Part shown: positions 10,059 through 32,000 of the stretch, one piece after another | How positions within the stretch are numbered: position 1 is the stretch's first letter | Layout: each line of letters opens with the position of its first letter | Origin: Opitutia bacterium KCR 482 | GTDB lineage: Bacteria > Verrucomicrobiota > Verrucomicrobiia > Opitutales > Intestinicryptomonadaceae | Direction of reading: 5' to 3' | Assembly: GCA_029269845.2 (NCBI GenBank) | Contig: CP149973.1 | Span: 1,860,001 to 1,892,000 of the forward strand | Length of the DNA stretch: 32,000 bases | Notes under the pieces: model-generated | Told to the model about the DNA's origin: nothing | Databases searched by the model: none | What the model saw: the letters and a program-made list of their open reading frames with translations, nothing else | Program-made: the position numbers and the translations under genes

Positions 10059-10721
10059 ATGAGACATAAAGTCTTCGACAAATTATACCGCTTTTTTTCG
10101 TCGCCGGAACTGACGGTCGCCGTCATGCTCTACGGCGTCGCGCTGTCGCTTGCGGCGGTTTGCTTCGGGGCGGGCAACGGCGGCGGATTCTTCGAATGCT
10201 TTTTCTTTACGCTCGACTTCGGCGGGCTGAAAATTCCGCTCGCGGGCGGCTCCACGCTTGGGCTTGTCGCGCTTGCGAACATATTTCTCGGCGGACTGCG
10301 CTTTTTCAAATTCGGCGTGGCGGGTTTGGGCGCGTCGATTCTCCACATGGCGTTCGCGCTGCTGATTGTGTCGGCGGCGCTGCGGCATTTCGTCCGCGAG
10401 GAGGGCGCGATGACGCTTTCGGAAGTGCCGACGGCTTCGGTCACGCTGTCTTCGGGTGTCGAAAAAAAACTTCCGTTCGAGGTCTGGCTTGAAAATTCCG
10501 AAATGAAATTCCGCCGCGGCGGGGACGTGAAAACTGCGCCGTTCGGAGCGGGCAGACCCGCGTCGTTCGCGGGGTGGACTTTCTATAAAACGGCTTCGGG
10601 CGCGACCGCCGTGAAAAACCCCGCGCGGCTTCTGCCGTGGCTCGCAACGGGGGCTTCGTTTTTCGGAATGGCGGCGGTGCTGCTGCCGAAATTCGGAAGG
10701 AGGGGCGATGGCGGGCGTTAA
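10059..10721 (+). CDS. short ResB/CcsB-like membrane protein (cytochrome c biogenesis system II, putative)
   Basis: The N-terminus DKLYRFFSSPELTVAVMLYGVALSLAAVCFG resembles the ResB N-terminal TM region (..FFSS.K..i.l....a.s..GT). It is only 220 aa and overlaps the ccsA start by 14 nt. Confidence 0.45.
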   Translation: MRHKVFDKLYRFFSSPELTVAVMLYGVALSLAAVCFGAGNGGGFFECFFFTLDFGGLKIPLAGGSTLGLVALANIFLGGLRFFKFGVAGLGASILHMAFALLIVSAALRHFVREEGAMTLSEVPTASVTLSSGVEKKLPFEVWLENSEMKFRRGGDVKTAPFGAGRPASFAGWTFYKTASGATAVKNPARLLPWLATGASFFGMAAVLLPKFGRRGDGGR

Positions 10722-11763
10722 ATCGGCACTGTGCTCGGCGGCGGCAGTGGTTCTCGGCGCGTGCGCTCCGTACGCGGCGTCGCGCTTGGGATTTTCGGGC
10801 TTGCCGTTTGCCGCGCCGCGCGATTTTCTTGGCGGAAACTCGGGGTGGCTCTCCGAATTTTTCGCGGCGGCAAACCCGCTTTTTGCGGCGGTTCTTTTGT
10901 ACGGATTTTCGCTCGCGGCGTTTCTCGTTTCGGGCGCGCGCGGACGAACTCCGACTGTGGCGGCGCGGATTTTGGCGGCGGCGGTCGCAGCTCACGCGGC
11001 GGGCGCGGGTGTTGCGGCGTTTTTGTGCGGCGGAATGCCGCCGCTCGACGCGCCGGAAATTGCGGTGTTCATGGGCATTGCGGCGGCAGTCTTGGGGCTT
11101 TTGCTGTACGCTAAAAACCGCGGCGCGGAATGCGTGGTGTCGGGGGCGTCGGCGGGGCTTCTTTCGCTGCTTGTGGCAAACGCCGACGGGGCAGTCGGAT
11201 CGGTCGCGGCGTCGTTCGATTCGAACCTTCTGTTTTGGACTTACTACGCGGCGGTTGTCGCGGGCTTCGGCGGAAGCTTCCTTTGCGGCTTTGCGGCGAC
11301 ATTCCGCATAGCGGCAAACCCGCTTTCGCGCGGAAACTTCGGAATCTCCACGGGCGATACGGCAAAAACGGCATACGGCTTGCAGTGCTTCTCGCTCTTT
11401 TTTCTGCTGGTGGGAACAATGCTCGGCGGAATCTGGTCGGACTGCGTTTGGGGCAGGTTCTGGTCGTGGGATTCGCGCGAAATCGGGGTGTTTGCGGTTA
11501 TCCTGTGGACGGCGGCGGCAACCCACGCAAAACGCTTCAAACTTCTTTCCGACAGGGGCTATCTCGGCATGGCGGTCTTGGGGAACGCCCTATGCGCATG
11601 GGCGGTGTTCGGCATAGGCTCGGCCGCTTCCCATTCGGTCGGGGAAGGGCGAATAGGGCTGTATCTGTGGGCATTCGCGGGGCTTGAATTTGCCGCATGG
11701 CTTCTTACTTTCTATAAATACGCGGAAAAAAGTGGGACGGGCGACAAAAAAAGCTTGAATTAA
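10708..11763 (+). CDS. ccsA: cytochrome c assembly protein CcsA/ResC family
   Basis: 351-aa polytopic membrane ORF with a Trp-rich WWD-like motif, GGIWSDCVWGRFWSWDSREIG. Confidence 0.75.
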   Translation: MAGVKSALCSAAAVVLGACAPYAASRLGFSGLPFAAPRDFLGGNSGWLSEFFAAANPLFAAVLLYGFSLAAFLVSGARGRTPTVAARILAAAVAAHAAGAGVAAFLCGGMPPLDAPEIAVFMGIAAAVLGLLLYAKNRGAECVVSGASAGLLSLLVANADGAVGSVAASFDSNLLFWTYYAAVVAGFGGSFLCGFAATFRIAANPLSRGNFGISTGDTAKTAYGLQCFSLFFLLVGTMLGGIWSDCVWGRFWSWDSREIGVFAVILWTAAATHAKRFKLLSDRGYLGMAVLGNALCAWAVFGIGSAASHSVGEGRIGLYLWAFAGLEFAAWLLTFYKYAEKSGTGDKKSLN

Positions 11764-14038: not shown

Positions 14039-14161
14039 CGTCTTTCGATTCTTTCAAAAACATATTTTTTCGCAATTAAAAAATGAGGGGCGAAAAATTT
14101 TTTGGTCGGGCGCAAAAATATACTTGTCAGGGCGGCGGCAAAAGAGTTGATTTTTCGGTAT

Positions 14162-15691
14162 ATGGAAAAGCTCGCATTGATATCCGTAAGCGATAAAACA
14201 GGCATAGTCGAATTTGCGAAAGAATTGACGCGCCATCACGGCTATAAAATTCTTTCCACGGGCGGTACGGCGAAATTGCTCGCCGAAAAGGGAATCCCCG
14301 TAACGGAAGTAAGCGATTACACCGGTTTTCCCGAAATGATGGACGGCAGGGTCAAAACCCTCCACCCCAAAATCCACGGCGGTCTCCTCTGCCTGCGCTC
14401 GTCGGAAGAGCACATGAAGCAGGCGGCGGAACACGGAATTTCCATGATAGACTTGGTCGTCGTAAACCTCTACCCCTTTGAGGCGACCGTCGCAAAGCCC
14501 GGCTGCACCATCGCCGACGCAATCGAAAATATCGACATCGGCGGGCCCTCCATGCTCCGCTCGGCGGCGAAAAACCACGCAAGCGTGACCGTCGTCTGCG
14601 ACAACCGCGACTATCCCTCGGTAATCGAGGCAATGCGCAAGGGCGGCGAGGAATTGCAGAGCCTGCGCAGAAAGCTCGCCCTCAAAGTCTACCAGCGCAC
14701 GAGCGCGTACGACGCCGCAATTTCGAACTACCTCAACAAAAAGTTCAACGGCGAAGACGCCCTTCCCGAAACGCTCAATGTGGGTCTGCCGCTCGTCCAG
14801 AAAATGCGCTACGGCGAAAATCCGCACCAGCAGGCGGCTCTTTACGGCGACTTCGGCAAGTTTTTCCGCCAGCTCCACGGCAAGGAACTTTCCTACAACA
14901 ACATCATCGACATCAGCGCGGCGGCGACGCTCATCGCAGAGTTCGACAAGCCGACCCTCGCGATACTCAAACACACCAATCCCTGCGGCGTGGCTTCGTG
15001 CGACAACTTGGTCGACGCGTGGAATCAGGCTTTCGAAACCGACAAACAGGCTCCGTTCGGCGGCATAATCGTCGTGAACAGGAAGATGGAGGCGGACTTG
15101 GCGCAAATCATTTCGGGCATTTTCTCGGAAGTGATTATCGCCCCCGACTTCTCCGACGAGGCTCTCGAAATTCTCACAAAGAAAAAGAACCTCCGCGTGA
15201 TGATTTCCACTTTCAAAAAGGCGGAAGGCCTGCAACTCAAAAGCGTCGTGGGCGGAGTTCTCGCGCAGGACGCCGACGCAATCGAAGAGCTTAAAGAAAA
15301 CATGCAGGTTGTCTCCAAACGCCAGCCCACCGACGAGGAATGGCGCGCAATGCTCTTCGGCTGGAAGGTCGTAAAGCACGTCAAGAGCAATGCAATCGTC
15401 TACGCGGGCTGCGAGCGCACGCTCGGAATCGGCGCGGGGCAGATGTCGCGCGTTGACAGCTCGCAAATCGCGGTCTGGAAAGCGGAACAGGCTAAGCTTT
15501 CGCTCAAAGGCAGCGTTGTAGCTTCCGACGCGTTCTTCCCCTTCGCCGACGGTCTCGTTGCCGCCGCAAACGCGGGCGCGACCGCGGCAATACAGCCGGG
15601 CGGTTCCGTTCGCGACGCCGAAGTTATCGCCGCCGCAGACGAAAACAACATGGCGATGGTCTTTACAAAAGTCCGCCATTTCCGACACTAA
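14162..15691 (+). CDS. purH: bifunctional AICAR transformylase / IMP cyclohydrolase
   Basis: It has an MGS-like IMPCH N-terminus ([22 protein letters not shown]...GGTAKLL) and an AICARFT domain that continues to the C-terminal FRH. I prefer the ATG at 14162 over the ORF-track TTG at 14102. Confidence 0.93.
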
Positions 15692-15697
15692 TATACG

Positions 15698-16522
15698 ATG
15701 GGTTTCGATATCTTCACGCTCAAAGGCAAAACGGCGCTCGCTTTTATCGCGGCGGCGTTCGCCGTGCTGTACATTCTTGCGGCGGGCGGCTGCGACTTCG
15801 GCAAAAGCGAAGTCGTAAAGGAGACCTCCGAAACCCATTTCGTTCGCGGTCAGGACGAACTCCGCAGGGGGAACGTCAAGGAGGCGATGAGCGCGTTCCT
15901 GAAAGTCGTTGAAAAACGCAAGGACGCGCCCGAATCGCATTTTGAATTGGGGCGTATATATCTCGACAATATGAACGACCCGATTCAGGCGATTTACCAT
16001 TTCAGAAAATTTCTCGAACTCAAACCGAACTCGCAGGTGTCGCCCATGGTGCGGCAGATGATTGAAACCGCGCAGAAAAAATTCGCGGCGTCCCTGCCAG
16101 AAAGCCCGTTCGAGAACAACGTGCGGCGGCTCGAATTGGAGGAGCTTCTCCAAAAAGTCCAGAAAGAGAACCTCGAACTCAAACAGCGTCTCGACGCCGC
16201 TGCAACCACGATAGAGTCGCTGAAAGCTTCGCAAAAGGTAAGCGTGGCGTCGGCGAGAGGCTCGCGCGAGGCGGCTTCGTCGGAGCGCAGACAGCAGCAG
16301 ACCCAACGCGCTGGCACGGCGCAAGCCCAACAGCAGACGGTCGAGGTAAGGCGCGACACGCCGTCGACGTACACGGTAATGCCTGGTGATACGCTTTCAA
16401 ACGTAAGCAGAAAAGTCTACGGAACAAAAAACAGGTGGCGCGAGATTTTCAACGCCAACCGCGACAGAATGGCGACGCCCGAATCCCTAAAACCGGGGCA
16501 GGTGTTGCGAATCCCGAGGTAG
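15698..16522 (+). CDS. LysM domain protein with N-terminal membrane anchor, TPR-like and coiled-coil regions
   Basis: The C-terminal LysM is TYTVMPGDTLSNVSRKVYGTKNRWREIFNANRDRMATPESLKPGQVLRIP. The N-terminal hydrophobic segment is ALAFIAAAFAVLYILAAGGC. Confidence 0.75.
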   Translation: MGFDIFTLKGKTALAFIAAAFAVLYILAAGGCDFGKSEVVKETSETHFVRGQDELRRGNVKEAMSAFLKVVEKRKDAPESHFELGRIYLDNMNDPIQAIYHFRKFLELKPNSQVSPMVRQMIETAQKKFAASLPESPFENNVRRLELEELLQKVQKENLELKQRLDAAATTIESLKASQKVSVASARGSREAASSERRQQQTQRAGTAQAQQQTVEVRRDTPSTYTVMPGDTLSNVSRKVYGTKNRWREIFNANRDRMATPESLKPGQVLRIPR

Positions 16523-18177: not shown

Positions 18178-18310
18178 GCTTATATTTCAGTTGTTTGCGG
18201 ATATAACTGTTATATAAAAAACGCAATCGGCGGAATTGCAATAATAAATTTTTTGTTCAATATTTGAAAACATCGCGGGGGCGATTGGAAATTCAAAAGC
18301 ACAAAAACAA

Positions 18311-18358
18311 ATTCACGATGCCGAAAAAATATCTATTCACGATGCCGAAAAAATATCT
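18311..18358 (+). repeat. perfect 24-bp tandem duplication spanning a start codon
   Basis: ATTCACGATGCCGAAAAAATATCT occurs at 18311-18334 and again at 18335-18358. This produces two in-frame ATGs (18318 and 18342), giving FTMPKKYL twice. Confidence 0.95.
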
Positions 18359-20378
18359 ATATGCCGTTTTGCTGACGCTTGCCGCCGCTGCGGCGTCCGC
18401 CAAACCGTTTATGTCGCTGCGCCACGGCAGCCCGACCGACAGGGAGATGATGGACATTATTTTGCAGTGCTCCGACAAGTCGGGCACTCCGTGGGACGAA
18501 ATGTGGTTTTACATAAACCCGTTTCTGAAAACGGCGAACATCGTCGAAAAATGCAATATGATAAACGCCTACCGCGACGAATGCCAAAAGCGCGGAATAG
18601 ATTTTTCGTTTCAGGTTATCGCGCTCGGGCACCCGTCGGGCGGCGGCGCGGCGGGCAGCGCAATTAGCGGAATGCTCTCCGACGCCGAATACGGCGAGAC
18701 CCTCGCTTCGACCGGCGAAATCAATTTCGAAAAGGGCGACTTGATTATAGACGAAAACGGCAACTGCCAGTACCGCCTTTGCCCGAATTCGGAGCGCGCG
18801 CGGCAGTTCAACCGCGGGCGCACAAAATTGTTCGTAGAACAGCTGCGCCCGAAGTCGTATTGGGTTGACGACGACCTCCGCTTTTCGGGCGGCGACTCGG
18901 AGCTGTTTACCTGCTTTTGCGAGACTTGCCTTAAAAAGTTTTCCGAATTTGCGGGGCAAAAATATACGCGGGAGGAAATCGTCGGGCGCATTTCAAAGTC
19001 GGTCGGCACGTGGGAGCCGCTTAGGGAGAAGTGGGTGGAATTTTGCGGAAAGTCGCTTGGAGAATTTTGCCGCGAGGCGTACCGCAAGCCCGTCGACGAG
19101 CTTATGCCCGAATGTTTCCTCGGCTTTCAGAATATCCATTCGCGCTACAAGCACAACGGGCTTACGAGCGGGGGGATTTTGAAAGGGCTCGCAGGCTCGA
19201 AAAGCGTCGGAATCCGACCGGGGGCGGGGTACTACGAAGAGGGGAATTCGCGGCTTTTGGTCTCCAAAATATTCGACGTCGCGCGCGAGGCCGAGGACTG
19301 CCGCAAAATGAAGTTCGTATCGCGCATAACGTACGAGGCGGAGAACTATCCGCGCATATCCATTCTCAAATCTCCCGAAGCGATGATGGCGGAATGCGCC
19401 CTCGCGCTTGCGGCTGGTTGCGACTCCCTTTCGCTCTACTGGTATTTCGGAAAGAATTTCGATTCTATTGAAAGCTACGAGCAGTTTGCGCAGACATGCG
19501 CGGAGTGGAAACCGTATCTGAAAAAAGTCGCCAAGGCGTCGAAAAATACGCGTCTTGGCGGAATCGCGAGGCCGCTTGGCGCGCACGCGGTGGCGTCGCC
19601 GAAACTATCGCCGAGCGACGTATTCCCCGCCGACTGGTGGACGGAGGACTCCATGTACAACATGATGCTCACGGGTTTTCCCGTGTGCCCCGAAAACGCC
19701 AAGCCCGACATTGTGTTCCTTACGGGCAGGGCGGTCGAAACTTTCGACGATTCGGAGCTTGAAGCTCTGTTGAAGAAAAACCTCATAATAAACCACGACG
19801 CCCTTGCGCCGCTTGCCAAGCGCGGGATAAATCTGGGCGTGAGGGCGCTGCCGAAAGCCGGCGGAACGGAGTTTGTGGACGGAAGAACCTACTGGTTTTT
19901 CGGCGGCGTCCCGCTCGAAGTCGAGTCTGCCGACGCGGAAATTCTTGCGGGCTTCCAGTCGGGCGGGAAGATGCGCGCGGGCCTGTGCGTTGTGAAAACG
20001 CCGCAGGGGGCGTCCGCGCTTGTCGTGGGCGGCTACGGGTTTGCGAGAAATCCGACGCATTTCAAGCGCAAGGCAATGCTCGACGGCATAGACAAAATCG
20101 CGCCGCTTTCGGTGCGGCTCGACACCACATGGCGCGCCGCGGTTTATCCTCGCGTAGACAAAAAGGGCAGGGTGTGCGCGGCGACGATTATGAACCTTTC
20201 GGAGGGCAAGTCGCTTCCGCTGAAACTGCGGATTCGCAATCCAAAATCGCGGACGCCCAAATGGGAAACCCCGCGCGGCGCGTTCGAACCGGAATGCGAG
20301 TACAACGCCGATTCACGCGAGCTTAAAATAACCGTCCCGCCTCTCGAAGCGTGGAAAGTCGGGACTTTAATTTTCTAA
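18342..20378 (+). CDS. secreted hypothetical protein, possibly carbohydrate-active (function unassigned)
   Basis: It has a signal peptide (MPKKYLYAVLLTLAAAAASA). The alternative start at 18318 adds 8 aa; the ORF-track TTG at 18264 is unlikely. A Cys cluster (RLCPNS...FTCFCETCLKKF) is loosely reminiscent of the GH42 Zn-site region. It is transcribed divergently from the LacI regulator. Confidence 0.6.
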   Translation: MPKKYLYAVLLTLAAAAASAKPFMSLRHGSPTDREMMDIILQCSDKSGTPWDEMWFYINPFLKTANIVEKCNMINAYRDECQKRGIDFSFQVIALGHPSGGGAAGSAISGMLSDAEYGETLASTGEINFEKGDLIIDENGNCQYRLCPNSERARQFNRGRTKLFVEQLRPKSYWVDDDLRFSGGDSELFTCFCETCLKKFSEFAGQKYTREEIVGRISKSVGTWEPLREKWVEFCGKSLGEFCREAYRKPVDELMPECFLGFQNIHSRYKHNGLTSGGILKGLAGSKSVGIRPGAGYYEEGNSRLLVSKIFDVAREAEDCRKMKFVSRITYEAENYPRISILKSPEAMMAECALALAAGCDSLSLYWYFGKNFDSIESYEQFAQTCAEWKPYLKKVAKASKNTRLGGIARPLGAHAVASPKLSPSDVFPADWWTEDSMYNMMLTGFPVCPENAKPDIVFLTGRAVETFDDSELEALLKKNLIINHDALAPLAKRGINLGVRALPKAGGTEFVDGRTYWFFGGVPLEVESADAEILAGFQSGGKMRAGLCVVKTPQGASALVVGGYGFARNPTHFKRKAMLDGIDKIAPLSVRLDTTWRAAVYPRVDKKGRVCAATIMNLSEGKSLPLKLRIRNPKSRTPKWETPRGAFEPECEYNADSRELKITVPPLEAWKVGTLIF

Positions 20379-20431: not shown

Positions 20432-21966
20432 ATGAATAATATACTGAAAATATCATTGTGCTTGCTGTCGGCTACCGCCGCCGCAAACGCCGACGAATTT
20501 GTCGGCAAGCCGGAAAGCGTAGGCAGGACTTGGCTCTCAAACCTAAACAACACAAAGGAAGCCGTTTTGGTTTCCACGCCTTCCGAGACTACGGGAGCTT
20601 TTTATGCGGGAAACGGGCAAACCATGAAAAAAATGACGGTTGTCGACAGGTCGTCGGGCAGCGACGAAGTCGGCGACGCCAACATCGCGTTCGATTTCAC
20701 GTTGGACGCAAATTCCGTCGACGCCGCGCAAGTACTCTCGGTAAAGAACTTGACTCTCAAATCTTCGAATGCAGTCGTAACAAACACGGCGTCTTCGTCC
20801 GTGCTTGTGTCTCTCGACATCAACAAGCTTGTTCTCGACGGCGAAAATTGGGGGAGCGGCGGCTACCAGACTCAGAAGCTTACCTTCAAAAACGTCAATG
20901 CAAAAGTGAACACCGCCGACACCACGCAAATCGGAATTACCGCTGGCACGTCTTCCTCTATTACGATTGATTCTGGCGCGAATGTCGAGTGGAATGGCAA
21001 TATCCATGCGGGAAAGCGGAATACCGAGTTCGTGTCAAACTCAGGTTTGTTCGTCAACGGCACGCTTTCCATGAACGGCAGCATTGCCGTCTACGGATAC
21101 GCGTCGGTCGGCGAGGGCGGAGTGTTGAACATGAACGGAAACAATTTGTCGATTACGGGCACTGTCGACATTTGGGGAACTGTAAACTTCGGCTCGCCGA
21201 AAAATTCCGACAGCAGAATCTACAATTACGGCGCGCTTAACATCAACAGTGCAAATCCCGCGTCGCAGCTCGTTTTTTACAATATAGATTCGCAGTACGG
21301 CGGCTCGGTGAATCAGGCGGTAGCAACGGGCGCGAATACCGGCATAAGGATCAAGGGGGTAGCCCAAATCTACAACGGCTCGAATTGGACGGTTAACGAA
21401 AAGCTGGAGCTTCAAGGCAGCGACGCCTCGAACATCGCGCAACTGAACCTTCGCGAAAACGGCGCGGCGGTAAGGTTTGTCGTTGGCGACGGGCAGACTG
21501 CGCGCTTTGCTCTTTTGGGAAATTCGCGCGCAACAATAAATGCGGTAGACTCTATTTCGACGAAAGACGGCGGCGCGGTCAAGCTTCTCGTTGAAGGCGA
21601 CAACAACAGTCTGGTTTTGGGGCGGCGCAGTCGTTCTCCGAAATGGAATTGAACGGAAATCTCGAACTAACCCTTTCCGCCGGCGCGCAACTCTTCCTCA
21701 CGGGCGAAACCGCGCCGACGCTTTCCATAGCCGACGGGAAATTGTTTACCATATATAATTTTATGGAAGAAACCATTTATGTCGGCGAAAATTTTGACTA
21801 CGCCGTTCTCCTCAAAATAAAGGCATACAATTCGTCGATGGAGCTTTTGCAAATCGGCGTAAAGGACGGTTTTCTGACTTCGTCGATACCCGAACCCGCC
21901 GAATGGGCGGCGGTTTTCGGGGCGTTCGCGCTCGGCTTTGCCGCGTACCGCAGACGCAGGCAGTAG
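20432..21966 (+). pseudogene. PEP-CTERM-anchored surface protein with beta-helix-like repeats, split by a 1-nt frameshift near 21619-21622
   Basis: ORF 20432..21652 carries the signal peptide MNNILKISLCLLSATAAANA. ORF 21643..21966 ends in the PEP-CTERM sorting signal IPEPAEWAAVFGAFALGFAAYRRRRQ. The second frame is open from 21595. One extra G in the TTTTGGGG run would give a continuous ...SLVLGAAQSFSEMELNGN... Confidence 0.7.
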
Positions 21967-23315: not shown

Positions 23316-23705
23316 TCATTTGCCCGAAATGTTTGTGTAGGGAATTTCGAGCGACGCCACAAACCCGACCGACGGCAGCCTTTTCGCCCAAAACTTGAAG
23401 TTTGCGTGGTCTTTCAGCCTGTTCCGCATAGTGCCGTATTTTACGATGTCGTCAGGGTTCAGCTGCGGGCGGTCGGGGCTTTTAGCAAGCTCGTTCGAGA
23501 GCGACGCCATGAATTTTTCGAGATTTCTGTTCGCCTTTTCGGATTGCGGCGCGGTGAAAAACAGCCTGTCGTTTATGTCTTTCGGGTTGCGCTTCGAAAT
23601 GTACGGGCAGTGTATGTCGAGCGCGTAGCGTAGCTTGCCGCGCCCCATTCGGGCAGCGTCTGCTTTATCGCGCGGACGTGTTCCCTGCGTAGTGTCGGAA
23701 ACGCG
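23316..23705 (-). pseudogene. 5'-truncated gene fragment, possibly the C-terminal half of an M14-like zinc carboxypeptidase
   Basis: ORF 23316..23648. Its frame stays open upstream to 23763, but GC-rich sequence stops at about 23705. ALDIHCPY and ASLEIPY resemble the second Zn-His region and the catalytic-Glu region of M14 enzymes. No HxxE-bearing N-terminal half is present. Confidence 0.4.
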
Positions 23706-23797: not shown

Positions 23798-23833
23798 CGC
23801 GGGGTCATACTAAAATGATTCCGCGCTTTTTTT
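23798..23833 (+). terminator. terminator-like hairpin in an AT-rich spacer
   Basis: The stem is CGCGGGGTCAT (23798-23808) / ATGATTCCGCG (23815-23825), with two G-U pairs only when read as plus-strand RNA. It is followed by CTTTTTTT and preceded by AAAAA. No plus-strand gene lies immediately upstream. Confidence 0.45.
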
Positions 23834-24269
23834 CAAAATGGGGTGGTATTTTGTGCTCAAATTCCAAAATTCTCTATCTTATGTAATTTTTTTATATGTA
23901 ATCTGATCCTCTTTATTTAACATCCGTGATGTAGAAAATGTAGAAATTATGAGATGTATTTGAATCAAGCGATAAAAGAAATTGTTTTTGCCATGAGAGT
24001 TTGGCGACCACGTAAATATAACACAATTCAGAGTAGTTCGTGATAAAGTTTATTTGTATGGTAGTGCAAACAGAGTCAAAACTCAAGAACCCAATTGATA
24101 AATCAACATCCTAGTTCAGATTACTAAATATTGGAAATGGATTTCTGATCGTGCGATATGGATTATTCGACCTTTCTTGCAGTTATACATGCAAAAACAT
24201 TTTATATTATATTGATTTTCTAGGTTGAAAAGTCACACAACGCTGACGCGCCAATTAGTTGTTATTTTG

Positions 24270-25940
24270 TTATGATTTTCTAATGATTGTTATTGGCATA
24301 TTGGACAAAAGTGTTTCATTTTCATGAGATAATGTTGGGATGTATATTGCTAAATTGTTTTTGGCTCGACTAATTGCAACATAATAGACTCTTTGTTCAT
24401 CTTTGTTTTCATCCAAATTTGGTGCAGTCAAAAATTTTATATCTTTTTCCTCCCCCAAAACAACCATAACGTTTTTGAACTCATCGCCTTTTGCTCTATG
24501 AATTGTTTTATCTCGTATCATCGATATATCAGGAGGCATTATGCACAACGCAAACTCTGAATAAGTATGATTTGAATAAAATGTTTTAGCCGCGCCATTT
24601 CGAAGACCTGTAACACTTATCCCCAAATCATTTTTCAAGTATAAGATAAAATAATCTAAACTTTGAGTCTTATATGTGGGATAATCTTTAATGAGTTTGC
24701 GTATTAGCTCAATTTGTATGCGAGAATCATCGGCTATCTTTTTTATGGATTTCAACGAATCGTTAATTGCACACATCAAGCCATATTCTATTGCACAAAC
24801 GCAATTATGTAATATCTGTACGCGATTCCAGTTGCTATCAGGAATCGAATTAAGTAGATTTTCATTCTTCGGTATTTCTCCTAACTGTTTTCTCAGTGCA
24901 TTGGATGTAAGTTTTGCATAAGATAATGTTATGATGTCGCCATTACAACGTTTCTTGAATTCATTGTAACACAAAACAACATCACCAATATATAGAATTG
25001 GCTTGTCTGAATGGTGCCTGTCTATGGAATATTGTTTCAAATCGGGACGGATAATATTCAAAAGAGAAATTATTTCTTCACTACACCGCCTATTCCCTTT
25101 GATCTCATACAGTTGCATTCCCACAAGTGAAAATTTATCAAACAAATTTGGATCTGTCCCTGCAAACCCGTAGATTGCTTGTGCTTTATCGCCAATAACT
25201 CCAATAACAGAATGGGATGCAGATGCTATCTTATTTAATATTTCAACTTGGATTGGGGTAGAGTCTTGAAATTCATCTACGAATATATATGGATACTTTA
25301 CACTAATGATATGTACAATAAATGGATAATTTTCCATCAATCTGTATGCAAAATACAAAACGTCATCATAGTGCATAACGCCATGTTCCCAAGTATATTT
25401 CTTATATTCATCGTAAAATGATTGGGATATTGTATAGTCTGAAAGTTTTATAGGATATTGGGGTTTGAATTTTAAGTTTCCATCTACAAATTTCCAAGAG
25501 GAGGAGAATAATGCTTTTTTTAATGCATTATCATCTTTATAGAATTTTTTGTTGATTCTTTCCTTTATTTTATACAGTGTACCTCCGTCTGTCATCATTG
25601 TGTCGTCAACGACCTTGAGCTTTTCTATTGCGAAGCCCTCTGCCTCTGCAATGAAATGGAAATATGGCTTGATTATATTATCATACAGGAAACTATGAAT
25701 TGTACAGACATCAACTCTTTCTGCGCAATCCGGTAAGCGATGACGTATGGTTTCTACACCGACATTGGTATAGGTGATACAGGCTATTTTCTTAATCTTG
25801 CCAAGACGTTTAGACTTTGCCAGCACATTTTTTATATGTTGGATTAACCAATAAGTTTTTCCTGCACCAGGTCCCGCTTTTACCAAAAAATTTTGTTCTG
25901 TATCTATCAGTGTATCTGATTTTATTGCTGAAACAGCCAT
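24270..25940 (-). CDS. gajB: UvrD/PcrA/Rep-like SF1 helicase (GajB-like)
   Basis: 556 aa. Motifs: I AGPGAGKT, II IFVDEFQDS, III IGDKAQAIYGFAG, IV NRRCSEEI, V TIHRAKGDEF, VI YYVAISRAKNNL. Its start overlaps the upstream OLD-family gene by 19 nt. Confidence 0.85.
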   Translation of the reverse strand: MAVSAIKSDTLIDTEQNFLVKAGPGAGKTYWLIQHIKNVLAKSKRLGKIKKIACITYTNVGVETIRHRLPDCAERVDVCTIHSFLYDNIIKPYFHFIAEAEGFAIEKLKVVDDTMMTDGGTLYKIKERINKKFYKDDNALKKALFSSSWKFVDGNLKFKPQYPIKLSDYTISQSFYDEYKKYTWEHGVMHYDDVLYFAYRLMENYPFIVHIISVKYPYIFVDEFQDSTPIQVEILNKIASASHSVIGVIGDKAQAIYGFAGTDPNLFDKFSLVGMQLYEIKGNRRCSEEIISLLNIIRPDLKQYSIDRHHSDKPILYIGDVVLCYNEFKKRCNGDIITLSYAKLTSNALRKQLGEIPKNENLLNSIPDSNWNRVQILHNCVCAIEYGLMCAINDSLKSIKKIADDSRIQIELIRKLIKDYPTYKTQSLDYFILYLKNDLGISVTGLRNGAAKTFYSNHTYSEFALCIMPPDISMIRDKTIHRAKGDEFKNVMVVLGEEKDIKFLTAPNLDENKDEQRVYYVAISRAKNNLAIYIPTLSHENETLLSNMPITIIRKS

Positions 25941-27967
25941 GTCATTGCTTCTTTAATATAATTAGGTATGTTGAATATCTTACGTTCTTTCTCCTGTTTT
26001 TCCAAGTTTTCTTTCAATACAATTGACAAATCCAATGCGTTTTCTCCTTTCCCGACAGAGTTAAGATAACGTGATGCCAATAATGCTTTCTTTTTATCGG
26101 AATCAGCCCAAGTGCAACATTTCAAAGATTCTTTGATTCGTTCGTTTTCTTTTGATTCTCGTAAAAAATCCATACATGCTGGATAGTCTTCTTTTTGAAT
26201 TTTTTTTAATTCGCTTATATTTGATAATCCTTCAACAAACAATAAATCTGATGTAGAGTTGAACAACATCAAATCGTATTCCAACGTCTTTCCTTTGTCT
26301 ACATCCTGACTATATACCCTGATATTGGGATGATTACGATATTTATCAATCAATTCACTTGAATGTTCTTTGTACTCATAACCATCTTTTCCTTTTTCAA
26401 AGGGGTAGCAGCATTCAAAGGGTTCATTATTTTTTGCTCTCCATGCAGGATCTCTGTCTGTAAGACATACAACTTTTTTTGATATAGCCAAAGGATTACG
26501 GATTGTATCAAATAGTTTCAAGAAATGCGAGAAATAGCGACCGCCGCAGCTTATTATTGCAACATGACTGTCCTCAATATTTTTCCCCATATAATTCACA
26601 AAGACTGGAATTAACAACTCTTCTGCTTTCCCTTCGACAAGGCATACTCTATCTGCAAATAACATATCTGATTTTATCGCATCCATAAATCTCTGGACAT
26701 ATTGTTTTGAGATTTTATCATTGTAATTGCTTTCGAATAATTTACCCGGATAAGCAATAGAAACTTGCTTGGTTATGTCATTATAAAGACAAATCAATTC
26801 ATCCAATGAGACCGCAGACGTTATTTCTGTGGAATGTGTAGTAACAAACAGTTGCCGTACTTTCTTTTCTTTTATTTGTTCATCCTTTAGATATTTTAGA
26901 AATTTGTATTGGAGTGACAAATGCAGGTGTGCTTCTGGTTCTTCGATAGCCAGTACAGAAAATACTTTTGCGTTCTGCCTGTAATATCCTTCATCTGTAT
27001 TGGCTTGCATCTTTGCTAAAAGTAACGACATATAAATAAGATTGTTGTATCCCAATCCATTATGGGTGGCGGCAATATCTATTCCCGTCCTATGTCTTAT
27101 TATCAATTGGAGAACTGCCAAGAAATCGGATTCGGAAAGTGTTCCACTGAAATCAGGTTCCGCGCCCTGAAAATCAGATGCACCAGTTTGTTTTGCGTAA
27201 TCAAGGATTTTATTTTTTCCGTGTGTTAATCGCTCTTTAACTTTATCAAGAGATACTTGAATGTTGTCTGTGAATTCAGAATGTCTATTGCTTATTTCTG
27301 TATTTTGGGTTTCTCTTGATTTTATCTTGTCACACTTTATTTCGTAATCCATAAAGAAGTTTAAGACTTCACGAAGCAGCGGAGACCGTCCGGAAAATAA
27401 ATCTCGTTCGACATCGCGTATTGGACCAAGAAATTCAAAATCTATTTTGTCAACAGTTTCCCCGTCTAATCTTGCTTGATTGGATGGGTTTCCTGCCCAC
27501 ATACGGGCTATATATTTTCGAAGATACTCATCTCTTATAATATCCCAAATATTGGCAGAAGTACTCATTCCCGATACTACATTTTTATATTCTGCTTCAT
27601 CTTCTTGGGGTAAGTAATACTCGTATGTAATTTGAGCTTCGTATGGATGTAACAAGTTGATCAGACAAGGAGCTACCATTACTAAATCTTCAGAATCAGC
27701 ATCTTCTCCTTGGCTTTCCTTAAAATAAACTTCTATGCGAACCTTTGGAGCAGCAGATTTTAAGTCGTCAATACTACAATTTCTACAAAAATCATACAAA
27801 GTGAGTCTTTTGGCGGTATCAGTATTTAGCACCAAGTCTAAGGCACGTAATAAGTTGCTTTTCCCTGCATTATTAGGACCAATGATAACGTTTATTCCAT
27901 CGTGGAACTCTATTACCTTATCTTTGAAATTTCTGTACCCCTTAATATGAATCTTTGATATATACAT
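25922..27967 (-). CDS. gajA: OLD-family ABC-ATPase / Toprim nuclease (GajA-like)
   Basis: 681 aa from the ATG at 27967, which has AGGA 5 nt upstream (the ORF-track GTG is at 28000). Motifs: Walker A GPNNAGKSN, signature-like THNGLGYNNLIYMSLLL, Walker B FSVLAIEEPEAHLH, H-loop LFVTTHS, Toprim Glu CLVEGKAEELLIP and DxD VVCLTDRD. About 170 aa follow the DxD. Confidence 0.85.
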   Translation of the reverse strand: MYISKIHIKGYRNFKDKVIEFHDGINVIIGPNNAGKSNLLRALDLVLNTDTAKRLTLYDFCRNCSIDDLKSAAPKVRIEVYFKESQGEDADSEDLVMVAPCLINLLHPYEAQITYEYYLPQEDEAEYKNVVSGMSTSANIWDIIRDEYLRKYIARMWAGNPSNQARLDGETVDKIDFEFLGPIRDVERDLFSGRSPLLREVLNFFMDYEIKCDKIKSRETQNTEISNRHSEFTDNIQVSLDKVKERLTHGKNKILDYAKQTGASDFQGAEPDFSGTLSESDFLAVLQLIIRHRTGIDIAATHNGLGYNNLIYMSLLLAKMQANTDEGYYRQNAKVFSVLAIEEPEAHLHLSLQYKFLKYLKDEQIKEKKVRQLFVTTHSTEITSAVSLDELICLYNDITKQVSIAYPGKLFESNYNDKISKQYVQRFMDAIKSDMLFADRVCLVEGKAEELLIPVFVNYMGKNIEDSHVAIISCGGRYFSHFLKLFDTIRNPLAISKKVVCLTDRDPAWRAKNNEPFECCYPFEKGKDGYEYKEHSSELIDKYRNHPNIRVYSQDVDKGKTLEYDLMLFNSTSDLLFVEGLSNISELKKIQKEDYPACMDFLRESKENERIKESLKCCTWADSDKKKALLASRYLNSVGKGENALDLSIVLKENLEKQEKERKIFNIPNYIKEAMTWLFQQ

Positions 27968-28290
27968 TTTTATCCTAAGTATTTTTTGTCGTCGATGCAC
28001 AAACCTTATTCTAATTTTCGTATACCTTCACAAACTATAAAGCAATCACAAAATTCATAGAATTCTTTAATATGGCTTACAATGCTTTTGTTGTTTTTGC
28101 GACTTTTTAACTCCTTAGTCCGAGTTTATTCAATTTACAAAGTTTCTCATTTTTTACTTTGTTGCTACAAACTCTCTCTTTAAGCGTTGGATTCCTTTTG
28201 TCCATATTCGTTTTAGCCGTTTTTGTTTTAAACATATCAAATATAATATTTTTAGTTTTTCATCTAATCGCCGAATTTTATAACAGCAAT

Positions 28291-28353
28291 TTGCCAAACT
28301 ATAAAATAAAAACTTGCCAAACACCACAATGCAATGTAGCTTTTTGGCATAAT
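28291..28353 (+). promoter_or_regulatory. candidate promoter/operator region of the ATPase gene
   Basis: The direct repeat TTGCCAAAC occurs at 28291-28299 and 28314-28322. An extended -10-like TGGCATAAT lies at 28345-28353, about 20 nt upstream of the ATG at 28373, with GGAAAGGG as a possible RBS. No good -35 element is seen. Confidence 0.3.
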
Positions 28354-28372
28354 AGAAACGGAAAGGGCTTTT

Positions 28373-29647
28373 ATGAAGAGGTATAGAAATCGAATTGCAG
28401 ACGGGATTCTCGGCAAGAAATTAAGGGCGAAGGGTGCCGTATTGATTGAAGGCGCAAAATGGTGCGGAAAGACAACCACTGCAAGTCAAATTGCAAAAAG
28501 TATACTTTATATGCAGGATCCCGCACGAAGAAGCCAATATCTCGAATTGTCCGAAATCGACCCCGCACGTTTGTTGTCGGGCGAAACTCCGCGCCTGATA
28601 GACGAGTGGCAACTTGCTCCGAAATTGTGGGATGCCATACGTTTCGAAGTCGACAAGCGCGACGAATTCGGACAGTTCATTTTGACGGGTTCCGCCGTTC
28701 CACCCGAAACATCGGAAATATCCCACTCCGGAATCGGAAGAATCACGAAGATGCTTATGCGTCCAATGAGCCTCTATGAATCGGGAGATTCAAGCGGGCA
28801 AGTTTCGCTTTCGGGGTTGTTTGCGGGGAATGAAGATATCTGCGGCGAATCGACAATGAATATAGACAAGCTTTCGTTTTTGATATGTCGCGGAGGTTGG
28901 CCGAAAGCCATTGACGAAGAAGAAGATGTCGCCCTCCAACAGGCAATCGACTACTTCGACGCGATTGTCGATGCCGATATTTCAAGAGTGGACAATGTGG
29001 AGCGCAACAAGGAACGGACAAAAAGAATCCTCCGTTCGTACGCGCGTTCCGTAGGCACGCAGGCAAAAATATCCTCCATAGCTGCGGATATTTCCGCGAA
29101 CGAAGCGGTTTCCATTTCGGATATGACAATAACTTCGTACATAAATGCGTTGAAAAAGATATTTGTTCTGGAGGATTCCTCCTCTTGGAATCCGAACTTG
29201 CGTTCGAAAACGGCGATACGTACATCCGATACCAGATATTTTACCGACCCGTCCGTTTGTACCGCCGCTTTGGAATTGGGGCCGAACGATCTTGTAAACG
29301 ACCTAAATACGATGGGCTTCCTGTTCGAAAATATGTGCATACGCGATTTGCGTATCTACGCGGAGGCGCTTGACGGGAACGTTTACCACTACCGCGACAA
29401 AAGCGGATTGGAATGCGATGCCGTTGTCCATTTAAGGAACGGCGTTTACGGACTGGTAGAAATTAAACTAGGCGGCGATCGCTTGATTTCCGAGGGAGTC
29501 GAAACGTTGAAAAAACTTTCCTCAAACATTGATACGACAAAGATGAAAGCTCCGGCATTTAAAATGGTTCTTATCGGTGTCGGAGAAATGGCCTACAGGC
29601 GAAGCGACGGAATTTACATTGTTCCCTTATCCTGCTTAAAACACTAA
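28373..29647 (+). CDS. COG1373-type AAA ATPase with a DUF4143-like, PD-(D/E)xK-like C-terminal domain
   Basis: 424 aa. Walker A is EGAKWCGKTT and Walker B is PRLIDEWQ. The C-terminal GLECDAVVHL...YGLVEIKLG fits a D...ExK nuclease-fold signature. The overall layout matches the AAA_14 plus DUF4143 family as I remember it. Confidence 0.8.
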   Translation: MKRYRNRIADGILGKKLRAKGAVLIEGAKWCGKTTTASQIAKSILYMQDPARRSQYLELSEIDPARLLSGETPRLIDEWQLAPKLWDAIRFEVDKRDEFGQFILTGSAVPPETSEISHSGIGRITKMLMRPMSLYESGDSSGQVSLSGLFAGNEDICGESTMNIDKLSFLICRGGWPKAIDEEEDVALQQAIDYFDAIVDADISRVDNVERNKERTKRILRSYARSVGTQAKISSIAADISANEAVSISDMTITSYINALKKIFVLEDSSSWNPNLRSKTAIRTSDTRYFTDPSVCTAALELGPNDLVNDLNTMGFLFENMCIRDLRIYAEALDGNVYHYRDKSGLECDAVVHLRNGVYGLVEIKLGGDRLISEGVETLKKLSSNIDTTKMKAPAFKMVLIGVGEMAYRRSDGIYIVPLSCLKH

Positions 29648-29735
29648 GCATGGGGATTTATGCCGATTTTTCAGTAACAGTCGAACTCGCGATTGTTTGC
29701 GGCGAATTGTTGGTTTTCATATGATATTGTAAAAA

Positions 29736-30146
29736 ATGGATACCGTGTCGAAGAAGAAACGCTCGGAAATGATGTTCAAGATCCGTTCGAAGGGAAACAA
29801 AAGTACGGAACTTAGGCTTGTTGCGTTGTTTCGGGAATACGGAATCACCGGATGGCGCCGCAACTCCAAGTTGGTGGGGCATCCTGATTTCGTCTTCCCG
29901 AAATACAGGGTTGCCGTATTCGTGGACGGATGTTTTTGGCACGGATGTCGGATTTGCAACAAAAGCCATTTACCGAAAACCCACAAGACGTTTTGGCGCA
30001 ATAAAATCGAAGCAAATGTAAAGCGCGACAGAAAAGTCACGCGCGAACTCGGAATTTTGGGGTACAAGGTAGTCCGCATACGGGAGTGTTCGCTTAAAAA
30101 ATCGCCCAAAGCCCAAATAGGACGTATATTGAAAAGACTCGGATGA
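29736..30146 (+). CDS. vsr: very short patch repair endonuclease
   Basis: 136 aa. KKKRSEMMFKIRSKGNKSTELRL...GHPDFVFPKYRVAVFVDGCFWHGC...PKTHKTFWRNKIEANVKRDRKVTRELGILGYKVVRIRECSL is colinear with E. coli Vsr (SKNM..I...DT..E..L, PG.PDFV, GCFWH.H.C, FW..KI..N..RD, WEC). Confidence 0.9.
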   Translation: MDTVSKKKRSEMMFKIRSKGNKSTELRLVALFREYGITGWRRNSKLVGHPDFVFPKYRVAVFVDGCFWHGCRICNKSHLPKTHKTFWRNKIEANVKRDRKVTRELGILGYKVVRIRECSLKKSPKAQIGRILKRLG

Positions 30147-30215
30147 AACTCGTACCCGCTCGGGTTACGGCAATATTTCCGTCCGTTTGAATAGCATTTG
30201 AAATCAGGGTATTGG

Positions 30216-30550
30216 CTATTTCGAAATTTCGAGCGTTTTCAGCGTATCAAAAATGCGTCTTGCCACGGCTCTTACAACGGGGACTGCTACGGAATTTCCG
30301 AACTGCTTGTAGGTCTGCGTGTCGGATACGGGAATTATGAAGGTCTCGGGAAATCCCTGAAGTCTGGCGCATTCCCTCGGGGTCAACTTTCTCGGATTTT
30401 TCGATTTGCCCTGATCGACGAGAATTTCGCTTCCGTCCTTATAGTTTTGCAGTATTCCGAAGTCTGTAATTCTCCGAATTGCATAATCTGCCGTGTATAG
30501 TAACGGGAATCGGAGGCAGGGAATTGGAGATATCAATCCCGAGTATGCGT
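30216..30550 (-). pseudogene. dcm: DNA cytosine-5 methyltransferase, C-terminal remnant only (motifs IX-X)
   Basis: [47 protein letters not shown] corresponds to motifs IX and X. No FxGxG, PCQ or ENV motifs are present. Upstream of about 30550 the ORF runs into unrelated AT-rich DNA. Confidence 0.8.
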
Positions 30551-30668
30551 ATTTTAATATTATAGTAGACGATGCTCTTCGTGAAAATCCGACTGAAAGA
30601 GTAAAAATTGCAACAAAATTTAACGAACGATTGAAATGTTTCAAAATATTGGCAATTTTGGTTGATAT

Positions 30669-30721
30669 TGCCGATATTTTGCAAAAGATAGGCAATAAAT
30701 AAAAAAAATGCCGATATTTTG
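30669..30721 (+). promoter_or_regulatory. candidate AbiEi operator (13-bp direct repeat) upstream of abiEi
   Basis: TGCCGATATTTTG occurs at 30669-30681 and 30709-30721, 40 bp start to start. The second copy ends 14 nt before the ATG at 30736. An overlapping inverted repeat, TATTGCC..GGCAATA, is also present. Confidence 0.35.
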
Positions 30722-30735
30722 AATTATTATTTTAG

Positions 30736-31458
30736 ATGACGAAGGAAATCGCATCACAAATTCTTGAATATGCCAAAAACAATAATAATTTTTGTATTGA
30801 TGCCTTGTTGCCTCATCTCAAATGTAAATCCGACATAAGAAAATCGACAATTTCTTGGATTTTATATCGATTAGTTAGAAGTGGAAAGCTTGCTAGGGTT
30901 GCTCGGGGTATTTACACGTTGCAAAACAAACAGATTTTTATTCCTCAAATAAGTGATGTTGTAAAATCTTTGTATGCGAAGATTGAGGTTAGGTTTCCCT
31001 TTAGTAAGTTTTGTTTCTATGATGGGAATTGTATCGCTTCCCTACAACATCACCTTGCCTCAAATCAACTCACATATATTGAAGTAGAGCGCGATTCTAT
31101 TGAGACTGTCTTTAATTTCTTAAAAACAGAGGAGTATAATGTTTTTTTGAAACCAGATAAAGATTTCTTTTATCGATACATCGATATGAATAAAACGGCT
31201 GTTATTGTGAAAACATTGATTTCAGAAGCTCCGATTCAAGAAATTTCAGGAATTGCTACAACTACAATAGAAAAATTATTAGTGGATATTCAAAAGGATT
31301 CAGATTTCTTTTATTTGCAAGGATATGAAACTATGAATATGATAAAGAATGCTTTTAGTTTATATTCTATAAACGTAGATAAAATGCTTCGTTATGCTTC
31401 AAGAAGAGGACTTCGCTTAGAAATGCTTAGCATCTTAAAAGAATTGGATATACAATGA
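30736..31458 (+). CDS. abiEi: AbiEi-like type IV toxin-antitoxin antitoxin / transcriptional regulator
   Basis: 240 aa. The N-terminal winged-helix-like STISWILYRLVRSGKLARVARGIYTL matches the AbiEi signature (..L...G.l.r..rGiY.l). An ATGA overlap links it to the downstream nucleotidyltransferase gene. Confidence 0.65.
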   Translation: MTKEIASQILEYAKNNNNFCIDALLPHLKCKSDIRKSTISWILYRLVRSGKLARVARGIYTLQNKQIFIPQISDVVKSLYAKIEVRFPFSKFCFYDGNCIASLQHHLASNQLTYIEVERDSIETVFNFLKTEEYNVFLKPDKDFFYRYIDMNKTAVIVKTLISEAPIQEISGIATTTIEKLLVDIQKDSDFFYLQGYETMNMIKNAFSLYSINVDKMLRYASRRGLRLEMLSILKELDIQ

Positions 31459-32000
31459 TTCAGAAGAAATGTTTTTCAAAAGAATGGATTGATGAAATTT
31501 CAACCAAATTAGGTTATGGAGACAAGCCCTAATTGAAAAATCAATTCGTGCATTGTCTTTGTTGGAAATGTTGGTAAGTTCGGGTTGTCCTTTTATATTT
31601 AAAGGTGGTACAGCCTTGATGTTAACATTAAATTCAGCAACGCATAGATTGTCTATCGATATTGATATTATTTGCCCACCTGGAACAAATATAGAAGATT
31701 TCTTGAAAAATTCATCTAAATATGGATTTTCGAGATTAGAATTTGTTGAAAGAAAGCAACGAGAAGGCGTTGATATCCCTAAAACACATTCAAAATTCTT
31801 TTACCAACTCGCCTACAATAGTGGAAATAATACTGAAAGCTATATCTTGTTAGATGTTTTATATGAAGATTCGCATTACTCTGAAATAAAAGAAATTCCA
31901 ATTGAAATGCCTTTTCTGCTTTTAGATGGGGCGGCATTGAAGGTTAAAACTCCATCGGCATCAGACATTCTTGGCGATAAATTGACTGCATTTGCCCCCA
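31455..32000 (+). pseudogene. abiEii: AbiEii/AbiGii-family nucleotidyltransferase toxin, frameshifted and 3'-truncated by the window edge
   Basis: The ATG at 31455 reads MIQKKCFSKEWIDEISTKLGYGDKP and then an in-frame TAA at 31530-31532. A different frame (codons phased from 31526) continues ALIEKSIRALSLLEMLVSSGCPFIFKGGTALMLTL...RLSIDIDIIC...DILGDKLTAFAP to the window end. One extra C in the CCC run (31527-31529) would restore a single ORF (..GDKPLIEKSIRAL..). Confidence 0.7.

Follow-up and report, generated by a model that had tools for sequence, protein, structure and literature searches.

A very probable long-form Gabija system in an acquired, low-GC defence island of Opitutia bacterium KCR 482

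Introduction

The Gabija system of Bacillus cereus VD045 (GajA of 578 and GajB of 494 amino acids (aa); PDB 8SM3, 8J4T, 8JQB and 8U7I) is a complex of a GajA tetramer with four GajB subunits, in which the Toprim nuclease of GajA is inhibited by nucleoside triphosphates (NTPs); activation is sustained by GajB, which recognises DNA ends and breaks down (d)ATP/(d)GTP (PMC10781630; 10.1101/2023.05.02.539174; PMC10822852). GajA corresponds to the class 2 OLD nucleases, which are recognised by a neighbouring UvrD/PcrA/Rep-like gene, and a dimerization domain is inserted in the ATPase of all OLD proteins (OLD-family review, PMC10568477). Two further class 2 proteins, BpOLD and XccOLD (6NK8, 6NJV), are non-specific endo- and exonucleases on which ATP has a negligible effect (PMC10568477). 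Here we analyse a stretch of 32,000 nucleotides (the window; contig CP149973.1, positions 1,860,001 to 1,892,000) from the genome of the gut bacterium Opitutia bacterium KCR 482 (Verrucomicrobiota; 2,302,728 bp, ~55% GC), in which two adjacent genes, gajA and gajB, had been read from the sequence as a Gabija-like nuclease and helicase pair of unusual size.

The pair very probably constitutes an intact Gabija system of a widespread long-form subfamily that PADLOC already models (~680 + 556-583 aa), carried in a horizontally acquired, low-GC defence island. Long-form Gabija is abundant in gut Bacteroidota and has no characterised representative: no biochemically studied member of the clade was found in the literature searched, and knowledge of the mechanism comes from the remote and shorter B. 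cereus system.

Two intact and overlapping genes

Both genes lie on the minus strand. The first, gajA (25922-27967), encodes a class 2 OLD-family nuclease with an ABC ATPase and a Toprim domain, as identified by its open reading frame (ORF), PADLOC, Pfam and Foldseek; the second, gajB (24270-25940), encodes a UvrD/PcrA/Rep-like superfamily 1 (SF1) protein, identified by the same means and an AlphaFold2 (AF2) model. The ORFs are of exactly 681 aa, counted from the ATG, and 556 aa, as the original prediction had estimated, and both proteins are already deposited at NCBI, GajB under a generic name (WYJ07149.1). An in-frame GTG at 28000 is an alternative start for gajA and would give 692 aa (+11 residues); the start is probably the ATG at 27967, because homologues begin MYISKI and profile alignments begin at residue 1.

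The 19-nt overlap that had been noticed between the two genes was found at 25922-25940 (minus strand), from the gajB ATG to the gajA TAA. It measures 16 nt in four related loci (L002, L004, L006 and L001) and 4 nt on a B. tropicus plasmid. The 3-nt difference from the related loci arises because a TAA has become CAA, followed by a new TAA (25922-25927, minus), which adds one Gln to the C-terminus of GajA, the sole change relative to otherwise identical metagenome copies. gajA and gajB are thus both intact, overlapping and co-oriented.

Upstream of gajA, an AT-rich intergenic region of 405 bp (27968-28372, minus) separates the gene from a divergent PDC-S01 gene and is presumed to hold the promoter. 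The 370 bp previously given for this region agree with the distance from the GTG (372 bp) and fall short of the 405 bp counted from the ATG. Sigma-70-like promoter matches upstream of gajA were no more frequent than in shuffled sequences, and the Bacteroides-type TAnnTTTG occurs once, 278 nt upstream of the ATG. Downstream, a weak terminator-like hairpin (24238-24253, minus; six pairs, three of them G-C, and a T-rich tail) lies 17 nt past the gajB stop; the count of such sites does not exceed that of shuffled sequences, and the hairpin is only suggestive as a terminator.

Assignment of the pair to Gabija

Against PADLOC-DB, GajA matched PDLC00069 best, with E 7e-270 and residues 1-680 aligned to positions 1-685 of the 687-position profile, and GajB matched PDLC00119 best, with E 1e-191 and residues 3-554 aligned to positions 3-563 of the 565-position profile; such values rule out chance similarity. 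GajA sub-profiles took the top 21 places and GajB sub-profiles the top 10, and the profile comparison placed the ATPase firmly with GajA. Pfam detected AAA_15 and OLD-like_TOPRIM (PF20469) in the first protein, UvrD-helicase (PF00580) and UvrD_C (PF13361) in the second, and nothing else in either. By sequence, the GajA entries of the PDB were retrieved at E ~1e-11 with a single query and 3e-15 with a family profile, and the GajB entries at E ~1e-10 to 1e-11 and 2e-23, respectively; the GajA model had the GajA structures 8x5i, 8u7i and 8sm3 as its top Foldseek matches. Since a UvrD-like gene overlaps the OLD gene, the nuclease belongs to class 2 and the pair is therefore Gabija as this class is defined; a UvrD-like partner gene was present in every related locus examined. 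This strongly supported call bears out the class 2 OLD plus UvrD-like operon that the original prediction had proposed, and the locus is recognisable as Gabija by any standard defence-system annotator.

The B. cereus system shares with this locus a two-gene architecture with overlapping or abutting genes, the domain order (an ABC ATPase with an insert followed by Toprim in GajA; SF1 subdomains 1A, 1B, 2A and 2B in GajB), a near-identical spacing of the Toprim E, G and DxD, and the Walker A, Walker B and DEXQD boxes. The likeness to the long-form clade of PDLC00069 and PDLC00119, which is found in Bacteroidota and on plasmids, extends to full-length and almost perfect matches, protein sizes and the overlap of the genes, with the nearest named relatives 74-76% identical; the locus differs from that clade in its Verrucomicrobiota host, in the extra C-terminal Gln and in its overlap of 19 rather than 16 nt. 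BpOLD and XccOLD resemble GajA in their Toprim and their two-metal acidic motif and apparently also in a helical C-terminal region (profile E 6e-10 to 7e-11 over residues 423-508).

Other systems built on an OLD ATPase were considered and rejected. The OLD effector of Retron-Eco8 and AriA of PARIS have the same OLD/ABC ATPase fold (Foldseek 9lp9 and 9p4j; PADLOC AriA E 1e-38). PARIS has its ATPase (AriA) and its Toprim (AriB) on separate proteins, whereas here a single protein of 681 aa combines the two and matches GajA at E 7e-270. For Retron-Eco8, there was no reverse transcriptase ORF among the neighbours and no msr/msd (Rfam, window), and the NCBIfam retron_eff_Eco8 model gave 43 bits against a cut-off of 250. 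The stand-alone class 1 OLD proteins (P2 Old, TsOLD) were dismissed on the overlapping helicase gene and the defence-island setting; a single-sequence GajA query ranked TsOLD (E 1.9e-12) before B. cereus GajA (BcGajA; E 1.4e-11), and GajA came first with the family profile and by fold, the match to the PADLOC GajA profile being much stronger than both.

Domains and active sites of GajA

The ABC ATPase region of GajA (residues 1-382; 26822-27967, minus; Pfam AAA_15, E 1e-36) is predicted to contain an inserted helical segment of the dimerization type. Motif and alignment searches placed the Walker A box GPNNAGKSN at residues 30-38 (K36; 27854-27880, minus) and the Walker B/D-loop LAIEEPEAHLH at residues 339-349 (E342, E343; 26921-26953, minus), the latter aligning to BcGajA 284-295, IYLIEEPEISLH. 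VTTHS follows at 375-379, and the Toprim core (residues 436-506; 26450-26662, minus; PF20469, E 1e-14) comprises E445, G475/G476 and D504-x-D506, within the motifs CLVEGKAEE (442-450) and CLTDRD (501-506) for the acidic residues. The Toprim active site of BcGajA consists of E379, G409 and D432/D434 (Nature 2023 structure paper, PMC10781630), and HMMER aligned E445 to E379; from Glu to Gly to DxD the spacing is 30 and 29 residues here versus 30 and 23 in BcGajA.

Among 28 homologues (52-78% identity), the Walker A residues G30, N32, N33, G35, K36 and S37 are invariant, as are E342/E343, H378, E445/G446, G475/G476, D504/D506 and E563. When 28 representatives of 30-52% identity and of both long and canonical size were added, K36, E342, E343 and E563 stayed invariant, together with E445, D504 and D506, the Toprim acidic residues. 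Neither of the two sequence findings that would have refuted the earlier reading, an ATPase outside the OLD/GajA clade and unconserved acidic residues in the Toprim, was obtained.

The AF2 model of GajA, built on a 28-sequence alignment, has a mean predicted local distance difference test (pLDDT) of 70 and is confident over residues ~390-680 and poor (pLDDT <50) over 173-202 and 261-385. Long helices were modelled at 196-261, and the presence of the dimerization insert is implied because the protein is collinear with full-length GajA profiles. Past the DxD, AF2 and Foldseek describe residues 507-681 (25925-26449, minus), which include the invariant E563, as the remainder of the Toprim followed by a helical C-terminal region; pLDDT is mostly 80-95 there, with helices modelled at 584-679. 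The model favours a Toprim fold and, after it, a helical C-terminal region that Foldseek matched at TMt 0.52-0.56 to the C-terminal fragment of class 2 BpOLD (6nk8).

Helicase-like features of GajB

The N-terminal half of GajB (residues 14-270; 25131-25901, minus; PF00580, E 5e-36) comprises the 1A core, a 1B-type accessory region of full size at ~90-200 and the DEXQD box; motifs V and VI lie in its C-terminal RecA-like core (residues 395-532; 24345-24758, minus; UvrD_C, E 2e-10). The motifs quoted in the original prediction were all found at the expected positions in both proteins, those of GajB being AGPGAGKT (22-29), VDEFQD (221-226), GDKAQAIYGFAG (250-261), TIHRAKGDEF (479-488) and VAISRAKNNL (521-530). 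No variation was seen at Walker A, the DEFQD box (D222, E223, F224, Q225 and D226) or motifs III, V and VI in an alignment of 33 sequences (42-73% identity), the invariant residues of motifs V and VI being T479, H481, K484, G485, E487, R517, Y520, V521, S524, R525 and A526.

The AF2 model of GajB (pLDDT 86) has UvrD, PcrA and Rep as its best structural matches. Residues 12-322 of the family profile are collinear with PcrA 21-328, so that 1A and 1B together have the length of those of PcrA, and residues 199-539 are collinear with 138-473 of B. cereus GajB (BcGajB). GajB departs from the helicases in its 2B-equivalent region, which counts ~155 aa versus ~233 aa in PcrA (about 80 aa shorter) and cannot be aligned to UvrD or PcrA, and past motif VI, where 21 residues only remain, modelled as a helix and a strand with no beta-hairpin separation pin. 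The NCBIfam equivalog models of UvrD, PcrA and Rep gave 82-91 bits against cut-offs of 911-1144, a roughly tenfold shortfall. A housekeeping UvrD, PcrA or Rep was accordingly rejected as the identity of GajB, on the missed equivalog cut-offs, the unalignable 2B and the missing hairpin.

The accessory C-subdomain carries a motif invariant in the clade, G449-x-A-K452-x-F454-Y455 (24576-24596, minus), placed where a helix begins in the model. The surrounding LRNGAAKTF might conceivably correspond to the GIG motif of UvrD; only G449, K452, F454 and Y455 are conserved.

BcGajB has no helicase activity and is devoid of the UvrD gating helix and GIG motif (2B) and of the separation pin (2A) (PMC10681800). 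Because its 2B region is short and unalignable and no hairpin follows motif VI in the model, the GajB described here probably lacks the unwinding elements of UvrD too, despite its full-size 1B region.

Size of the two proteins

GajA and GajB are 103 and 62 aa longer than their B. cereus references, whose sizes the original prediction had remembered correctly as about 580 and 490 aa, and their sequence similarity to these references is low. From the lengths it had concluded that the pair may be a divergent subtype with extra domains. In its strong form, this reading holds that Gabija is represented here by a structurally distinct subtype in which the extra ~100 and ~60 residues are additional functional domains, and some inserts are indeed well conserved within the long class (occupancy 0.99 for residues 120-143 and 1.00 for 627-639). 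We consider it very improbable, for the reasons that follow.

Neither protein contains an additional Pfam, NCBIfam or PADLOC domain, and PADLOC already holds sub-profiles of these sizes: its GajA sub-profiles range from 464 to 752 positions and its GajB sub-profiles from 502 to 685, with one of each (687 and 565) equal to the sizes found here. Both proteins also align end to end with profiles of canonical size, GajA residues 1-679 with positions 1-582 of a 588-position profile and GajB residues 16-553 with positions 6-506 of a 515-position profile, a collinear fit without any terminal add-on. The stretch of ~290 aa from Walker A to the signature motif, which had been counted as an extra insertion, probably corresponds to the dimerization domain common to all OLD ATPases; 306 aa separate K36 from E342 here, compared with about 253 aa between K35 and E288 of BcGajA. 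Nor are the ~170 residues after the DxD an addition as such, since BcGajA already has 144 against 175 here. Relative to BcGajA the offset builds up gradually along the chain: it is +1 for Walker A, +54 for Walker B, +66 for the Toprim Glu, +72 for the DxD and +103 by the C-terminus. The ATPase insert region accounts for 53 of these additional residues, the part before the Toprim Glu for 13, the Toprim for 6 and the part after the DxD for 31.

Because BcGajA and BcGajB can be aligned only in their conserved cores, a set of 18 canonical-size relatives, 557-612 aa long, served to map the inserts of GajA. Its surplus falls into 11 segments of 4-24 aa totalling 97 aa, the largest at 120-143, 605-620 and 627-639; those of the C-terminal region are 605-620, 627-639 and 655-660. 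None is long enough to be a domain. In GajB, the 62 additional residues lie almost entirely N-terminal to residue ~200 and, since the protein is collinear with PcrA and BcGajB elsewhere, nearly all of them map to 1B (Nacc), which they bring only to the length it has in PcrA and UvrD. Judged from these alignments, the 1B of GajB is of normal UvrD/PcrA length and that of BcGajB is shortened. The larger size therefore reflects many short loop and helix expansions in GajA and an unreduced 1B in GajB and brings no new domain, and the long-form size class is already catalogued in PADLOC. Size judged against a single reference is thus a poor indicator of novelty in the Gabija family; what novelty remains lies in an abundant gut-associated clade with no characterised representative and in a GajB less reduced than the B. 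cereus model protein.

Relatives and distribution of the long form

At E<=1e-10, GajA has 4545 relatives, and the best 120 are nearly all of 678-689 aa. An exhaustive search of 50%-identity representatives returned dozens of clusters of 650-715 aa aligned from residue 1 to ~679, and GajB relatives are uniformly of 553-572 aa. Outside the 90% cluster of this locus, the nearest sequence is 78-79% identical. Every close GajA relative with a name comes from the Bacteroidales, with identities of 76% in Leyella stercorea, 74% in Parabacteroides timonensis, 55% in Dysgonomonas and 54% in Paludibacter, which points to acquisition across phyla, and the locus documents the transfer of a Bacteroidales-type defence module into the genome of a gut Opitutia, a member of the Verrucomicrobiota.

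Related pairs occur in varied surroundings. A pair of 680 + 556 aa with a 16-nt overlap is found on Parabacteroides-type contigs amid McrBC, HipAB, Mrr, methylases and a KAP NTPase; a Prolixibacteraceae genome has a pair of 687 + 573 aa, its GajB 45% identical to the one described here; and plasmids of the Bacillus cereus group, Psychrobacter and Persicobacter carry full-length homologues (40-47% identity) with the helicase gene adjoining, among them a 691 + 583-aa pair next to an integrase on the B. tropicus plasmid JMTpXO. A scan of genome contigs with the single GajA protein as query returned one locus. As a unit complete in two genes, the same pair moves among defence islands and plasmids that are otherwise unrelated. 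Two candidates for a further component were rejected: the small ORFs that gene callers mark directly 5' of gajA, which measure 42 aa here and 70-82 aa in the Parabacteroides-type loci, are unrelated in sequence and do not represent a conserved third gene, and the PDC-S01 ATPase encoded upstream is not found beside homologous pairs in other loci.

Proposed mechanism and alternative readings

All catalytic residues of the ATPase, of the Toprim and of the SF1 core are conserved in the pair, and a mechanism may be suggested by analogy with B. cereus, where K94/R97 of GajA contact V147/Q150 of GajB at the interface (PMC10781630). GajA and GajB would be co-translated and would form a hetero-oligomer (4:4 in B. 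cereus), in which normal cellular levels of NTPs would hold the Toprim nuclease off. Upon phage infection GajA might nick or cleave DNA by two-metal catalysis at E445, D504 and D506; GajB could then sense the resulting DNA ends and hydrolyse (d)ATP/(d)GTP, and this hydrolysis would both further release GajA and starve the phage. It is conceivable, if rather unlikely, that the long-form clade departs from this scheme, GajB being a genuine translocase or helicase that feeds DNA to GajA instead of a mere end-sensing NTPase and the conserved GajA inserts (120-143 and 627-639) remodelling the oligomer interface; the full-size 1B, the UvrD/PcrA/Rep-like model and the clade-invariant G449-Y455 motif might point to such a translocase.

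A number of observations weigh against the assignment to an intact Gabija. The B. cereus VD045 system is remote (~15-18% identity in structural alignments), and sequence alignment to it is confined to the conserved cores: phmmer and hmmsearch aligned only GajA residues ~1-88 and ~336-485 to BcGajA and only GajB residues ~199-539 to BcGajB, and the C-terminal half of GajB as sole query did not retrieve BcGajB. The ATPase core of GajA is poorly modelled, with pLDDT <50 for residues 261-385, and the GajB model is nearer to UvrD, PcrA and Rep (E ~1e-23, TMq 0.55-0.63) than to BcGajB (E 1.6e-16, TMq 0.40). GajA homologues also differ from one another, BcGajA nicking specific sites and LsGajA degrading DNA non-specifically (PMC13304284). 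Finally, two defence genes that neighbour the pair in the island, for a C5 cytosine methylase and for AbiEii, have decayed.

This decay is the starting point of a second and still less probable reading than that of added domains, namely that the island is decaying and the pair an inactive remnant, neither expressed nor functional in its host. The adjoining methylase gene is cut down to its last ~70 aa and abiEii is apparently frameshifted, no promoter was identified and promoter-like matches did not exceed those of shuffled sequences, and the GC and codon background of the genes is very unlike that of the host. Against this, neither ORF is shortened and no catalytic residue has been lost, ORFs of 681 and 556 aa are unlikely to stay open in DNA of 33-36% GC without selection, and identical proteins in the same layout occur in two further independent assemblies. 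The pair is the most intact defence module of the window, which accords with its earlier description as the most clearly functional one.

The least probable reading is a housekeeping or mobile-element pair that serves DNA repair or maintenance instead of phage defence, for instance a module by which the island secures addiction or exclusion, or an OLD ATPase with a cellular role like that of archaeal Cran1: while GajB is structurally closest to the repair helicases UvrD, PcrA and Rep and OLD ATPases with non-defence roles exist (PMC12796447), the equivalog scores (82-91 bits, cut-offs 900 or more), the patchy distribution, always as a two-gene module in defence islands or on plasmids, and the low GC that marks the pair as accessory DNA all speak against it, as does the definition of class 2 OLD by an OLD nuclease together with a UvrD-like gene (PMC10568477).

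The surrounding island

The Gabija pair lies beyond a drop in GC, at about 23.8 kb, from ~55% to 33-40%. This acquired region (~23800-32000 and beyond) is a mosaic of 33-40% GC overall with a segment of 47-51% that spans PDC-S01 and vsr. The same locus is present in two metagenome assemblies (L002 and L003), and in the first of these the low-GC tract runs at least 10 kb past the edge of the window (L002 1-14400), with genes for Wzy_C, two DUF1573 proteins and a Peptidase_C39 protein beyond that edge. At the left junction of the island no integrase, tRNA or flanking repeat was identified, and an Rfam scan of the window returned tRNA-Pro only.

Divergent from gajA, the gene 28373-29647 (plus) encodes the ATPase (AAA_14/DUF4143) of the candidate system PDC-S01 (PADLOC E 5e-61). 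It is followed by an intact vsr (29736-30146, plus) and, convergent with it, the remnant of the C5 cytosine methylase gene (30216-30695, minus), which leaves an orphan Vsr beside a methylase remnant; the remnant covers Pfam positions 269-323 of 324, and abiEi fills the space of the 5' part. abiEii (31455-32000, plus) begins with an ATG that overlaps the abiEi stop (ATGA, 31455-31458). Its native frame reads MIQKKCFSKEWIDEISTKLGYGDKP* and the AbiEii Pfam match (E 7e-16) resumes in another frame from ~31496 to the end of the window; in related assemblies the gene is called as an N-truncated product of 319 aa.

The flanking housekeeping genes encode GlgC, TyrRS, MatE, an AIR synthase-related protein, YchF, HemA and an SGNH esterase, and the AIR synthase-related protein, YchF, the SGNH esterase and GajB are exact matches to KCR 482 proteins. 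Large host ORFs of 704, 758, 220 and 351 aa (18264-20378, plus; 14054-16330, minus; 10059-11763, plus) had no Pfam match at the thresholds used. A high-GC ORF of 110 aa at the junction of host and island (23316-23648, minus) had no Pfam or PADLOC match and is uncalled in L002 and L003; possibly it is what is left of a gene that the incoming island interrupted. Further into the host sequence, a 406-aa protein (20432-21652, plus) is followed by a 107-aa PEP-CTERM protein, the two being separate in KCR 482 and their cluster relatives being single proteins of 511 aa, and this pair is probably a split or frameshifted gene.

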